Below are positions 3,935 to 7,513 of a DNA stretch of 7,513 nt, one piece after another. The translations under genes were made by a program, and so were the position numbers. The stretch comes from a virus (Duplodnaviria; Heunggongvirae; Uroviricota; Caudoviricetes). Location: IMG/VR virus record IMGVR_UViG_2698536348_000008, positions 1-7,513 of that record. One strand, given 5' to 3'. Position 1 is the first letter of the stretch. Every line of letters starts with the position of its first letter. Under the pieces are notes generated by a model. That model saw nothing but the letters and a program-made list of their open reading frames with translations, made no database searches and was not told the DNA's origin.

Positions 3935-3951
3935 TTTTGTGGAGAAAGTTG

Positions 3952-4323
3952 ATGCGTGATATTCAAATGGTTCTTGAACGTTGGGGGGCATGGGTGGCAA
4001 ATAATCACGAGGATGTGGAATGGTCATCTGTTGCTGCAGGTTTTAAGGGATTAATTCCTTCGAAAGTAAAATCCCGCCCGCAATGTAGCGATGACGATGG
4101 CCTGATCATTAGCTCTGCGATGACAGTTCTTAAGAAAAAGGAACCGTATCAATACGAATTACTGGAAATGTATTATGTGTATGGGGTTACATTACGGGTG
4201 TTGGGGGTAAAACTGGGGATATCACTTAATCAGGTTGTTATCAGACTGCAGAAAGCTGAAGGGTTTATTGACGGTTGTCTGGCAATGTTGGGGGTATCTT
4301 TAGAAATTGATTGTTACATATAG
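3952..4323 (+). CDS. Antitermination protein Q (QuuD-like short Q)
   Basis: MRDIQMVLERWGAWVANNHEDVEWSSVAAGFKGLIPSKVKSRPQC... closely resembles the DLP12 prophage Q homologue QuuD as I recall it. ATG 3952 has RBS GGAG at 3941-3944; the ORF-track start at 3937 is TTG. Confidence 0.75.
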   Translation: MRDIQMVLERWGAWVANNHEDVEWSSVAAGFKGLIPSKVKSRPQCSDDDGLIISSAMTVLKKKEPYQYELLEMYYVYGVTLRVLGVKLGISLNQVVIRLQKAEGFIDGCLAMLGVSLEIDCYI

Positions 4324-4636: not shown

Positions 4637-4652
4637 GGAAGGTGCGAACAAG
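4637..4652. repeat. IS5 left terminal inverted repeat
   Basis: GGAAGGTGCGAACAAG; its partner at 5816-5831 reverse-complements to GGAAGGTGCGAATAAG. Confidence 0.9.
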
Positions 4653-4659
4653 TTCCTGA

Positions 4660-5685
<1,026 letters not shown>

Positions 5686-5815
5686 AAACTGGGGATAACG
5701 CCTTAAATGGCGAAGAAACGGTCTAAATAGGCTGATTCAAGGCATTTACGGGAGAAAAAATCGGCTCAAACATGAAGAAATGAAATGACTGAGTCAGCCG
5801 AGAAGAATTTCCCCG

Positions 5816-5831
5816 CTTATTCGCACCTTCC
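5816..5831. repeat. IS5 right terminal inverted repeat
   Basis: CTTATTCGCACCTTCC, inverted complement of the left terminus with one mismatch. Confidence 0.9.
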
Positions 5832-5835: not shown

Positions 5836-6344
5836 AAGTTAAAGCTTATGAGACGATGCAGAGCGTAAATGACAACTTTCATGCCCTTTATCCTGAAGGA
5901 CGATGGGGTGTTGATTTTAATGAGCATCGCTTTGCTTTATTTGATTTTTTTAAAAACGGGAAACGAAAAAAAACGGCATTTATGGCAATTGAGTTCAGGG
6001 AAAGAGATGAAGAGAAAATAATAACAGGTGTAACAATTGATATTGGTATATCTGGAACAGTGATTTCTGAGAAGTCCCGAATCCCAAAAAGACGACCATG
6101 GGTAGTGGTTGGTCCCGAACACGGAGAATACAGTACTTATTCAACTTTGGACAAGGCTGCTACAGCGTTTTTTGAGAGGCTTTCGTTGATAGCATCCGGC
6201 CTGGAAGATAATTGATTTTATGTTTGGTATTCAGAGTTCGCCGTGCTTAAGAAAGTCAAGATTCTAAAAATACTGAATGAGCTACTTGTGTTATAACAAA
6301 AATGCTATTAGTGTGTTAAGAGTGGTTACTTCGCCACACAACTT

Positions 6345-6369
6345 AAACCCGCCACTGAGCGGGTTTTTT
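6345..6369 (+). terminator. Rho-independent terminator (8-bp stem AAACCCGC/GCGGGTTT, 6-nt loop, T6 tract)
   Basis: Stem 6345-6352 pairs with 6359-6366 and is followed by TTTTTT 6364-6369. Lies about 130 bp after the cargo ORF stop. Confidence 0.6.
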
Positions 6370-6491
6370 GTACCTGTAAACTTGGTGCAGTACAGTAAAC
6401 ACGCTGGTGGTCGTGAATACTGACTTTTTATCTTGCTGGCTTTTTAGACAAGAGTTATTGGTATGTCATGTTAACCAGAAGGGAAAAAGAC

Positions 6492-6689
6492 ATGCTAAAA
6501 CAGCAAGATATGACCGAAACCGCCAGAGTGGTGTTTAATGAATTGAGCGTCACCGAACCGGCGACAGTCGGGGAGATTGCGCAGAATACTTACCTTTCAC
6601 GCGAACGCTGCCAGTTAATACTGACCCAGCTGGTTATGGCGGGTCTGGCAGACTATCAGTTCGGTTGTTACAGACGCCTTCCGCAGTGA
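6492..6689 (+). CDS. Small hypothetical protein (~65 aa) with HTH-like segment
   Basis: The ORF track gives 6468-6689. I prefer ATG 6492 because it is preceded by AAGGGA at a suitable spacing, whereas 6468 has no RBS. TVGEIAQNTYLSRERCQLILTQLVMAGL resembles a helix-turn-helix (pattern only). Ends inside a terminator-like hairpin. Confidence 0.4.
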   Translation: MLKQQDMTETARVVFNELSVTEPATVGEIAQNTYLSRERCQLILTQLVMAGLADYQFGCYRRLPQ

Positions 6690-6699
6690 AGGCTTTTTT
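6676..6699 (+). terminator. Candidate rho-independent terminator (6-bp stem GCCTTC/GAAGGC, 6-nt loop, T6 tract)
   Basis: GCCTTC 6676-6681 pairs with GAAGGC 6688-6693, followed by TTTTTT 6694-6699. The stop codon of the small ORF lies in the loop/stem. Confidence 0.45.
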
Positions 6700-6716
6700 A
6701 TTTGTGGTAAATGGGC

Positions 6717-6747
6717 GGCTGGTGGGTGTTAGGGGCACCCACCAGCC
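6717..6747. repeat. Perfect 12-bp inverted repeat (GGCTGGTGGGTG / CACCCACCAGCC) with 7-nt spacer; each arm contains a Chi octamer
   Basis: Left arm 6717-6728, right arm 6736-6747, exact reverse complements. GCTGGTGG is at 6718-6725 (+ strand) and its complement CCACCAGC at 6739-6746. Confidence 0.6.
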
Positions 6748-6839
6748 ATCTGCTCATGCGTTGGGTTCACAAGCAAACCTCAGGCCCACTGCTTTGCGCA
6801 AAAGCAGAATGAGCCTATCAGAGACAGGCTTAATGATCC

Positions 6840-7513
6840 ATGCTTAATACTGTAAAAATATCCAGTTGTGAGTTAATCAACGCCGACTGCCTGGAATTTA
6901 TCCGGTCGTTACCCGAAAATTCTGTTGACCTGATAGTCACGGACCCGCCGTACTTTAAAGTGAAGCCTGAGGGCTGGGATAACCAGTGGAAGGGCGACGA
7001 TGATTACCTGAAGTGGCTGGACCAGTGTCTGGCGCAGTTCTGGCGGGTGCTGAAACCTGCCGGAAGTCTTTACCTGTTCTGTGGTCATCGCCTGGCATCT
7101 GATATCGAAATCATGATGCGTGAACGCTTCAGTGTGCTGAACCATATTATCTGGGCGAAGCCGTCCGGACGCTGGAACGGATGCAACAAGGAAAGCCTGC
7201 GGGCGTATTTCCCCGCCACAGAGCGCATTCTGTTCGCGGAACATTATCAGGGGCCGTATCGTCCGAAAGATGCCGGGTATGAGGCGAAGGGCAGGGCACT
7301 GAAACAGCATGTGATGGCCCCGCTGATTGCTTACTTTCGTGATGCGCGCGCTGCCCTGGGGATAACGGCAAAACAGATTGCAGATGCCACAGGAAAGAAA
7401 AACATGGTGCCGCACTGGTTCAGTGCCAGTCAGTGGCAGCTACCGAACGAAAGCGATTATCTGAAATTACAGTCGCTGTTTGCCCGGGTGGCAGAAGAGA
7501 AACATCAGCGCGG
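6840..7513 (+). CDS. DNA methyltransferase (N6-adenine/N4-cytosine type, DPPY motif), 5' portion; continues past the window end
   Basis: Not in the ORF track (no stop in window). From ATG 6840 I translated 224 codons without a stop: MLNTVKISSCELINADCLEFIRSLPENSVDLIVTDPPYFKVKPEGWDNQWKGDDDYLKWLDQCLAQFWRVLKPAGSLYLFCGH... The TDPPY motif near the N-terminus and overall pattern resemble YhdJ/phage-type MTases. The minus-strand ORF 6909-7415 overlaps it and is rejected. Confidence 0.8.
   Translation, partial: MLNTVKISSCELINADCLEFIRSLPENSVDLIVTDPPYFKVKPEGWDNQWKGDDDYLKWLDQCLAQFWRVLKPAGSLYLFCGHRLASDIEIMMRERFSVLNHIIWAKPSGRWNGCNKESLRAYFPATERILFAEHYQGPYRPKDAGYEAKGRALKQHVMAPLIAYFRDARAALGITAKQIADATGKKNMVPHWFSASQWQLPNESDYLKLQSLFARVAEEKHQR

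Follow-up and report, generated by a model that had tools for sequence, protein, structure and literature searches.

An orphan M.EcoGII-type methyltransferase gene of lambdoid prophages is accompanied by a conserved structured leader and a small winged-helix protein gene

How might a temperate phage keep silent, in the lysogen, a gene for an adenine methyltransferase (MTase) that lacks sequence specificity and slows growth when expressed? This question is raised by a stretch of Caudoviricetes DNA of 7,513 nucleotides (nt), IMG/VR record IMGVR_UViG_2698536348_000008 (hereafter referred to as the window), which ends within such an MTase gene. A small open reading frame (ORF), a terminator and a near-palindrome precede the gene, and a preliminary description, made from the sequence alone, took this layout for a possible controller-protein-regulated modification module. 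Here we report that the MTase gene encodes M.EcoGII, that it is an orphan in the late region of lambdoid prophages, that the small ORF encodes a conserved winged-helix protein, and that a conserved structured leader adjoins the MTase start codon. With a confidence somewhat better than even, we read the whole as a late-operon anti-restriction cassette gated by terminators and leader RNA, analogous to com-mom of phage Mu.

The MTase ORF, which the preliminary description had correctly recognised from its TDPPY motif despite its absence from a list of ORFs (it has no stop in the window), begins with the ATG at 6840 on the plus strand and contributes 224 codons, with VTDPPYF at residues 33–39. It matches Pfam N6_N4_Mtase (E=2e-17). 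BLASTP comparison with the M.EcoGII sequence given in the supplement of PMC11551740 showed identity at 223 of 224 positions, that is, over all residues encoded in the window. As every aligned relative carries I at residue 103, the sole mismatch there (I versus H) probably reflects faulty transcription in the machine-read supplement. Full-length relatives such as that of locus L001 have 349 amino acids (aa), the C-terminal 125 residues lying beyond the window, and the motifs follow the beta-class order, with TDPPY at residues 34–38 in the window and FFMGSGS near residue 310 in the L001 relative, outside it. PADLOC assigned the EcoGII-type gene to MTase_II (E=2.5e-166). Judged by sequence, the window MTase is thus the known enzyme M.EcoGII. 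Similar DNA is present in 2,994 of 5,426 complete E. coli genomes. M.EcoGII is sold as a reagent for chromatin and RNA footprinting.

Murray et al. (PMC5778455) describe M.EcoGII as a non-specific adenine MTase of 349 aa from a prophage of E. coli O104:H4 C227-11; the purified enzyme, alone, is non-specific on DNA and on RNA. The enzyme is not expressed in the lysogen and slows growth or does harm when (over-)expressed, and the mechanism by which its gene is silenced is only presumed (Murray et al. 2018). Sequence-independent methylation by the window allele is taken from this literature (PMC5778455) and would follow from the identity of the sequences. The authors also name phage 1720a-02 as the carrier of a very similar gene, and this phage is the best phage match to the window.

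The window represents the late-regulatory region of a lambdoid prophage, with one Dam-like, one RusA-type and one DUF968 gene as well as the Q antiterminator gene. The closest genome has, in this order, Q, a hypothetical gene, the small ORF, the MTase gene, three tRNA genes, holin, lysozyme, spanin and terminase. A holin gene follows the MTase gene directly in SfV and mEp460, with a lysin gene next; tRNA genes and stx2e follow it in phiP27, and tRNA, stx or lysis genes in E. coli prophages. More distant loci were sought with two scans: one of viral contigs with the MTase, which gave only near-identical E. coli phages, and one of metagenomes ordered on the Plesiomonas enzyme, which supplied the diversity. 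ORFs resembling holins, endolysins and spanins come next in 12 diverse loci (Salmonella, Proteus, Providencia, Plesiomonas, Mixta and metagenomic contigs). No restriction gene was found downstream of the MTase gene in the annotated relatives or in these 12 loci. By gene order, then, the MTase gene appears as an orphan between Q and tRNA, stx or lysis genes in about 180 related loci.

The small ORF was delimited mechanically as 6468–6689; conservation places its start at the ATG at 6492, with an AGGG Shine-Dalgarno sequence 8 nt upstream, and exactly the same 198-nt coding sequence is annotated in RefSeq relatives. A large protein collection contained 334 homologues of the product, and since only 61 cluster representatives were found at E ≤0.001, the family is narrow. 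The ratio of nonsynonymous to synonymous substitution rates (dN/dS) was 0.03 at a dS of 0.68 in comparison with SfV, and 0.07–0.11 in other unsaturated comparisons, rising to 0.37–0.39 in the two most diverged computable ones (L034 and L035); the phiP27 protein is identical despite a 4% nucleotide change. These values argue for a real gene under purifying selection. The AlphaFold model of the protein (pLDDT, the predicted local distance difference test score, 87.5) has the topology H-S-H-H-S-S of a minimal winged helix, and Foldseek returned winged-helix domains only, among them those of IclR/MarR regulators and of small-molecule O-methyltransferases, as well as the winged helices with which SelB binds RNA. 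The hidden Markov model search that the preliminary description had recommended assigned the protein to phrog_331 (E=1.4e-37; "function unknown" in the database), and gave only sub-threshold winged-helix matches in Pfam (TrmB, MarR_2, DprA_WH and HTH_24), with no match to HTH_3/Xre. The window's protein contains no CxxC pairs and is not a Com-family zinc ribbon. The motif RCQLILTQL of its recognition helix is invariant across clades. A search of genomes with the small protein yielded 34 loci, in 32 of which an EcoGII-type gene starts 134–153 nt past the small stop codon, the exceptions being one contig end and one decayed copy; among loci with enough upstream sequence, the small gene lies within 800 nt upstream of the MTase gene in 161 of 182. 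These comparisons support a conserved protein of nucleic-acid-binding type that is genetically coupled to the MTase.

These findings bear directly on the controller reading, in which the small ORF would bind the palindrome as a C-box and thereby time the MTase and a downstream restriction enzyme of a restriction-modification (R-M) system. What had suggested it was a small ORF of DNA-binding type before the MTase gene and a near-palindrome 32 nt before the MTase start. The reading fails because no restriction gene was found, the neighbours in relatives being tRNA, stx, holin or lysin genes instead of the partner that had been envisaged, and because the small protein, a winged helix, does not have the Xre-type helix-turn-helix (HTH) fold of C proteins. 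Furthermore, a C-box lies upstream of the controller gene, whereas this palindrome comes after the small gene and the terminator of that gene, and M.EcoGII is non-specific, without a cognate restriction specificity. In a 31-locus alignment we saw no conserved dyad between the upstream terminator and the small ORF, although no formal C-box pattern search was run. We therefore give the controller reading practically no credence: it was wrong in kind, and yet partly supported, in that the MTase gene does go together with a small protein of nucleic-acid-binding type and with a palindromic region that is conserved. Of the two circumstances named beforehand as telling against such a module, lack of conservation of the small ORF is not what we found, whereas the MTase gene is indeed an orphan, with lysis genes next in SfV and mEp460.

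What, then, is the palindromic region? Both elements already pointed out there are present: the terminator between the two genes, with a stem GCCTTC/GAAGGC at 6676–6693 (P0) followed by TTTTTTATTT, and the near-palindrome (P5), whose arms CTGCTTT/AAAGCAG occupy 6789–6795 and 6801–6807. Between them lies a perfect 12-base-pair (bp) inverted repeat (P3; 6717–6728/6736–6747). All three belong to one element of about 140 nt (6702–6839), the structured leader of the MTase gene (Table 1). The plus strand at 6702–6850 folds with z=-4.2 relative to dinucleotide shuffles (z=-4.6 for the opposite strand), and the leader features are kept with compensatory changes in Escherichia, Proteus, Providencia, Plesiomonas and metagenomic contigs; thus, the palindromic features are more than chance. 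The leader can be aligned from E. coli to Plesiomonas at 67–92% nucleotide identity, while identity falls to 47% for the small ORF and to 57% for the MTase gene; against Plesiomonas itself the values are 72.5%, 47% and 60%, respectively. The leader is more conserved than either flanking gene.

A covariance model of the leader (R1) matched the window at 6702–6845 with 124.6 bits. In each of 132 loci (136 by another count) the model gave a single match, which invariably lay on the sense strand with its end at the start codon; the 817 kb searched on both strands yielded no further match at E ≤1. Four loci among L100–L197 were negative, either through contig-end cuts or as members of a GC-rich clade with a different leader; overall, the leader is present in 180 of the 182 loci with enough upstream sequence. 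No Rfam 15 family matched at its gathering score in the whole window, or in 6640–6860 at relaxed E-values, where the best match was P26 on the minus strand (24.2 bits versus a gathering score of 36) and the rest stayed below 16 bits. By generic measures the element is a conserved structured RNA, part of the signal coming from one deep clade split.

The pairing evidence is clearest for P3, which changes its sequence fully between clades and is paired every time: GGCTGGTGGGTG/CACCCACCAGCC in the window, GACTGTAAAAGTG/CACCTTTACAGTC in Proteus, GACAGTGAGGATG/CATCCCCGCTGTC in L024, and GCTGCAGCATG/CATGCTACAGC, GCGGGACGAG/CTCATCCCGC and GGCGTACATAATG/CATCGTGTACGCC in metagenomic contigs. In a model-guided alignment, 92.8% of P3 cells were paired and both-sided changes occurred at 10 of the 12 pairs. 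Pairing was also counted in a MAFFT alignment of 65 distinct leaders that was not structure-fitted (A5), with the 3′ partner slid by 1–3 columns as controls. Here two structural models had 79.9–81.4% of cells paired, compared with 31.7–47.5% in the slid controls, 19–21 pairs with both-sided changes, and a covariation score of 0.20–0.23 (versus ≤0.13) that none of 500 shuffles reached; whole-structure pairing was 80–86% overall. One pair of the ALT1 helix occurs as U-A, A-U, C-G and U.G, all within the enteric clade, and the P0 stem reads GCCTTC/GAAGGC, GCCTCC/GGAGGC, GCTGCC/GGCAG or CGCCTCCGC/GCGGAG. The segment S2 varies, yet in each of the 65 sequences its pairing with the segment S1 is canonical at five of the six positions. 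P3, P0 and the one ALT1 pair are independently supported, by several independent changes each, and the other helices mainly by invariance or wobble-keeping changes. A further candidate helix, P7 (GGUCA with UGAUC before the AUG), seemed promising in enteric sequences and was rejected, as it is absent in the L118 and L127 clades and its sides recombine freely among E. coli variants. A GATC (Dam site) stands directly before the MTase start (6834–6839 in the window), in the form CTGATCT-ATG or TGATCC-ATG, near-invariant in the enteric and Proteus/Providencia clades (at the positions in L002–L037) and absent in the L118 and L127 clades.

Several of the leader pairings exclude one another. Among the 65 sequences S1 can pair with S2 (6752–6757; 95% of cells paired) or with S4 (6784–6788; 100%), S5 with S4 or S6, and ALT1 is incompatible with S1:S2. 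Folding predictions place the energy minimum at fold I (P2+P4), in which the AUG of the window is paired; fold II (ALT1+P2′+P4′) is predicted to pair the only AGG upstream of the AUG. We found no canonical Shine-Dalgarno sequence at −5 to −10 of the MTase start, and the nearest AGG lies 11–15 nt from the AUG in most clades. Because the start is weak and either the AUG or the only upstream AGG is paired, depending on the scheme, we read the leader as a candidate translational lock. Labels of ON and OFF for the two folds were dropped, since constrained folding makes P2+P4 the ground state, which also hides the AUG.

Table 1. Positions of the late-region features in the window
Feature	Position	Strand	Evidence
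Structured leader upstream of the MTase start	6702–6839	+	Covariance model, pair counts, nucleotide identity
Leader segment S1, AUGGGC	6711–6716		
Leader hairpin P3	6717–6747		
Leader ALT1 arms	6749–6754/6772–6777		
Leader segment S2, GCUCAU	6752–6757		
Leader segment S4, GGCCCAC	6783–6789		
Leader near-palindrome hairpin P5	6789–6807		
Leader segment S5, GAGCCU	6811–6816		
Leader segment S6, AGGCU	6826–6830		
M.EcoGII-type beta-class N6-adenine MTase gene, N-terminal 224 codons	6840–7513	+	M.EcoGII identity, Pfam, PADLOC
Small winged-helix protein gene (65 aa, phrog_331)	6492–6689	+	RefSeq coding sequence, homologues, dN/dS, model, PHROG
Terminator/attenuator hairpin P0, overlapping the small-ORF stop codon, its U-rich tract running into the leader	6676–6703	+	Terminator scan
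Upstream intrinsic terminator, AAACCCGC-N6-GCGGGTTT plus T-run, 5′ boundary of the conserved cassette	6345–6372	+	Inverted repeat
Promoter-like block: TTGCTG (6433–6438), 17-nt spacer, TATTGG (6456–6461), second −10-like TATGTC (6462–6467)	6433–6467	+	
Q antiterminator gene	3937–4323	+	Pfam PF06530 Phage_antitermQ, E=1.5e-47; position matches annotated Q in relatives

Two terminators stand in front of the MTase gene. The upstream one has a counterpart at the same position in SfV, annotated there as putative rho-independent, and a GC hairpin with a T-run occurs at this position in nearly all of the 34 genome loci, with differing stem sequences. In most clades a GC hairpin with a U-rich tail (P0) stands directly before the leader; it is strong in the window, in SfV and in a group of contigs that we call type B (L118–L139; see below), weak in loci of the Kluyvera/Salmonella type and missing from Proteus/Providencia. 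The promoter-like block that separates the upstream terminator from the small ORF is kept as CTTGCTG-N17-TAYCTG/TACATG-TATGTCA in all loci of the 31-locus alignment, in which the spacer is variable. A consensus promoter scan did not call this block; the cassette may own a promoter there, if the conserved motifs act as such. On the minus strand, 6337–6473, which overlaps the upstream terminator and the block, gave a full-length sub-threshold match to the Rfam family STnc130 of Salmonella (30.1 bits versus a gathering score of 55, E=0.2), which is probably due to chance or to distant prophage homology.

Relatives with other arrangements help to define which parts travel together. The type-B contigs encode a small-protein homologue of 75–97 aa (hhalign 93.7%, E=1.9e-7; same PHROG), and their order is small gene, perfect palindrome, good sigma-70 promoter, conserved initial transcribed sequence, strong terminator, leader, MTase gene and lysis genes. 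The palindrome is 14–18 bp long (GGGACCATGGTCCC / GCGACCACGGTCGC; for example in L127:2230–2370) and occurs in two copies in L120. The promoters read TTGGCA-17-TATCTT and TTGCCA-17-TACTAT, and are followed by a conserved TTCTAAGTTGGGA, a −10-like TAAGTT and, about 40 nt later, the terminator. Because this order of gene, promoter and terminator matches that of Q, pR′ and tR′, the type-B layout may be read as an equivalent of them; no recognisable Q gene was found among the upstream ORFs listed for L120 and L127. A possibility suggested by this arrangement is that the phrog_331 proteins themselves act as late regulators. In two contigs, an ORF of 36–45 aa with the Com-family pattern CxxC...CxxC lies between the leader and the EcoGII-type gene (L132:2360–2470 and L147:2362–2478), and the leader adjoins the start codon of this com ORF rather than that of the MTase gene; the L132 ORF matches Zn_ribbon_Com (PF10122) above threshold (24.6 bits versus a cutoff of 22.9).

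The GC-rich EcoGII-type clade of L128 and L130 lacks the leader and follows the same logic by other means: about 150 nt upstream of the MTase start it has a strong promoter (TTGACT-17-TAGTAT), an initial transcribed sequence that is conserved, a terminator, and another spacer that looks structured. Several copies are decayed or rearranged. The MTase gene has been lost after the leader in L020 (4169–4305) and has an internal stop in L026 (4339–5376); the small ORF is frameshifted in L030 (4001–4069), and L116 (2328–2500) has a 29-nt insertion within P3. In phiSTEC1575-Stx2k (L199, 3029–4100), the small ORF and the initial part of the leader are followed by an HTH gene in place of the MTase gene.

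We propose that these parts would form a self-contained cassette, carried between Q and the lysis genes by many temperate Enterobacterales phages. Its enzyme would methylate adenine in any context, presumably shielding progeny phage DNA from many restriction enzymes, and would harm the host if its synthesis were mistimed. Two gates could restrain it. The first would be the pair of intrinsic terminators: because the gene sits behind both, transcripts should reach it only with the terminator-resistant RNA polymerase of the lytic cycle. The second would be the folded leader, a translational lock in need of a key, and the 65-aa winged-helix protein seems the most likely key or co-regulator, which might bind the leader RNA or the palindromic DNA. 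Because a Com-type zinc-ribbon protein is inserted at the same place in some relatives, the arrangement can be viewed as a functional analogue of Mu com-mom. We infer dependence on antitermination, translational control and a role of the small protein from this architecture. A more specific form of the proposal, that the leader is a new family of cis-regulatory RNA for EcoGII-type MTases and that the phrog_331 protein is an RNA-binding or Q-like partner that opens the leader or overrides the terminator, is tentative, possible but clearly short of probable.

Several observations weigh against the gated-cassette reading. The leader and the MTase gene occur with no recognisable small-protein gene nearby in 21 of the 182 loci, and the promoter-like block 5′ of the small ORF could permit Q-independent expression. 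The predicted stability of fold I exceeds that of fold II by a median of 7.7 kcal/mol, so that the exclusive pairings do not in themselves establish a genuine switch between two states. An unbiased scan of all column pairs was dominated by a single split between the enteric and the Proteus/Providencia sequences, and we therefore discounted 'compensatory' pairs at clade level, such as 147–182 of alignment A2. The counts of G.U and A.C pairs in fold II (116 versus 122) do not single out the sense strand; by helix, P2, P4′ and P3 favour it and ALT1 and P5 do not. With so ambiguous a count, some helices could have a role in an opposite-strand RNA or at the level of DNA. Finally, the centre of P5 is self-complementary in most clades (GCGC, AGCGCT, AACGTT, GTGCAC and TGCGCA), which suits a site for a dimeric DNA-binding protein, because the loop of an RNA hairpin needs no self-complementarity.

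The strand ambiguity and the equally good folding of both strands would be compatible with an independent small RNA, or a cis-antisense RNA, arising from processing of the late transcript or from transcription of the opposite strand, and prophage regions after pR′ are known to carry small RNAs (PMC4104026). Such an RNA would hardly be expected to adjoin the start codon always, in one orientation and with its 3′ end fixed at the AUG, as the element does; no terminator follows the element on either strand, and it matches neither AgvB, AsxR, STnc100 nor any other Rfam family. We consider this explanation very unlikely. The known prophage small RNAs of the pR′ moron site (AgvB, AsxR, EcOnc, Pas and STnc100) were considered as candidates and rejected, being located elsewhere and giving no match.

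The self-complementary P5 centre bears on a further explanation, in which the small protein would regulate transcription by binding DNA, as a late activator, a Q-like antiterminator or a repressor, either at a promoter belonging to the cassette or at the palindrome; 6789–6807 would then be an operator, not an RNA hairpin. The protein has the fold of classical DNA-binding winged-helix regulators, L013 carries a double change of AGCGCT to AACGTT that would be useless to an RNA hairpin, and the type-B small gene is followed by a perfect palindrome, a promoter and a terminator in the manner of Q/pR′/tR′. However, RCQLILTQL is invariant while the P5 centre shifts from AGCGCT to GTGCAC, and the P5 loop is not palindromic in some clades (CGAA, CUAUGAA). 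Type-A loci such as the window have no conserved dyad near the promoter-like block, and the covarying P3 and ALT1 hairpins would be left unexplained. This explanation is unlikely, with a modest chance of being right.

The small protein could instead be a subunit or targeting factor of the MTase that gives it a substrate preference, and not a regulator of its expression. The conserved gene order and spacing in 32 of the 34 genome loci would fit, as would the lack of specificity of M.EcoGII purified alone. A precedent is found in the Shiga toxin (Stx) phage PA8, whose gp5 MTase (M.ECPA8_3172P) is reported to be non-specific alone and to prefer 16S rRNA together with the co-purifying PNB-2, and which resembles the window pair as a phage MTase with a small adjacent partner said to confer RNA recognition (preprint 10.1101/2023.09.20.558713). 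When PNB-2 is aligned locally with the small ORF, without significance, a motif of winged-helix type is apparent in it. Unlike the window pair, gp5 (208 aa) and gp6 (143 aa) overlap and lie at the early left end of the phage, and no significant BLASTP similarity links the two pairs, which are not homologous. The window genes are parted by a terminator and 150 nt, with no translational coupling; in type-B contigs a separate promoter and terminator follow the small gene, and the 21 loci that keep the MTase gene and leader have no small gene. On balance the subunit explanation is quite unlikely. An outright identity of the small ORF with PNB-2 was ruled out, gp5 and gp6 being different genes at the other end of the phage. 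In PA8 (L200, 2228–3282, minus strand), the PNB-2 stretch PVTGSEIAEKFGVS resembles the HTH part of the small ORF; the overall E-value of 0.14 is not significant.

Two features of the window lie outside the cassette. A copy of the insertion sequence IS5 (1195 bp, 4637–5831; transposase ORF 4705–5685) sits between Q and the cassette, inside a phrog_8498 gene that has weak WYL-like matches. The window aligns to an uninterrupted relative on both flanks of the insertion with a 4-bp overlap, and its IS5 junction was found in none of the 5,426 complete E. coli genomes. A second, unrelated MTase-like ORF at 546–1244, with an NPPY motif, has the position and gene order (small ORF and RusA-type gene next) of the annotated dam gene of SfV.

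The enzyme itself is already known; what is new, as far as Rfam and the searchable literature show, is the regulatory architecture, namely two terminators, a structured leader absent from Rfam, a phrog_331 winged-helix partner and Com-containing variants. If our reading is right, this gate of terminators, leader and small protein would answer the question of control left by Murray et al. and explain the silence, in lysogens, of a widely used and toxic enzyme. The phrog_331 protein would be the winged-helix counterpart of Mu Com, the large phrog_331 would gain a function, and Rfam would gain a family of phage cis-regulatory RNA. Of the complete E. coli genomes searched, more than half carry the family, as do many Stx phages, where it immediately precedes the toxin genes. 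In many Stx2 phages the cassette occupies the interval from Q/pR′ to stx, so that its terminators and structure might also influence the amount of late transcription that reaches stx.

The cassette can be compared with several known systems. With M.EcoGII/M.EcoGI as described in PMC5778455 it shares the enzyme itself, of beta class with an N-terminal DPPY and prophage-borne; neither the bioinformatics section of that paper nor term searches of it revealed any mention of the small gene upstream, of the terminators or of the leader. Type II R-M systems with C proteins likewise have a small regulatory-type ORF beside the MTase gene and a palindrome nearby, whereas the EcoGII cassette has no endonuclease, no Xre-type HTH and an MTase without sequence specificity. 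Among the lambdoid late-operon 'morons' inserted after Q/pR′ (stx, tRNA genes and anti-sRNAs; PMC4104026), it occupies the same slot, is bounded by terminators and undergoes mosaic exchange. It differs from them in having its own promoter-like block, a dedicated small protein and a structured leader, and in that its payload acts on phage DNA, where the others are directed at the host or virulence.

The closest parallel is Mu com-mom, in which Com activates mom translation by binding the mom mRNA (PMC3299994; PMC6483171); Com-like genes also precede the genes of non-specific adenine MTases in Mu-like prophages (Hin1523, Hia5 and Nme1821; PMC3299994). Both systems combine a toxic, broad-spectrum late modification gene with a gene for a tiny nucleic-acid-binding protein and with mRNA structure, here predicted, at a weak start, and a true Com-family ORF stands in the equivalent place in L132 and L147. 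The differences are also plain. The small protein of the window is a 65-aa winged helix and not a zinc ribbon, and its gene is separated from the MTase gene by 150 nt with a terminator between, unlike the overlapping com and mom, while the leader is larger and has several hairpins. The enzymes here are of the beta-class EcoGII type, unlike Mom and the alpha-class Hin1523 group, and a Com-like activation of their synthesis is suggested here by analogy with Mu.

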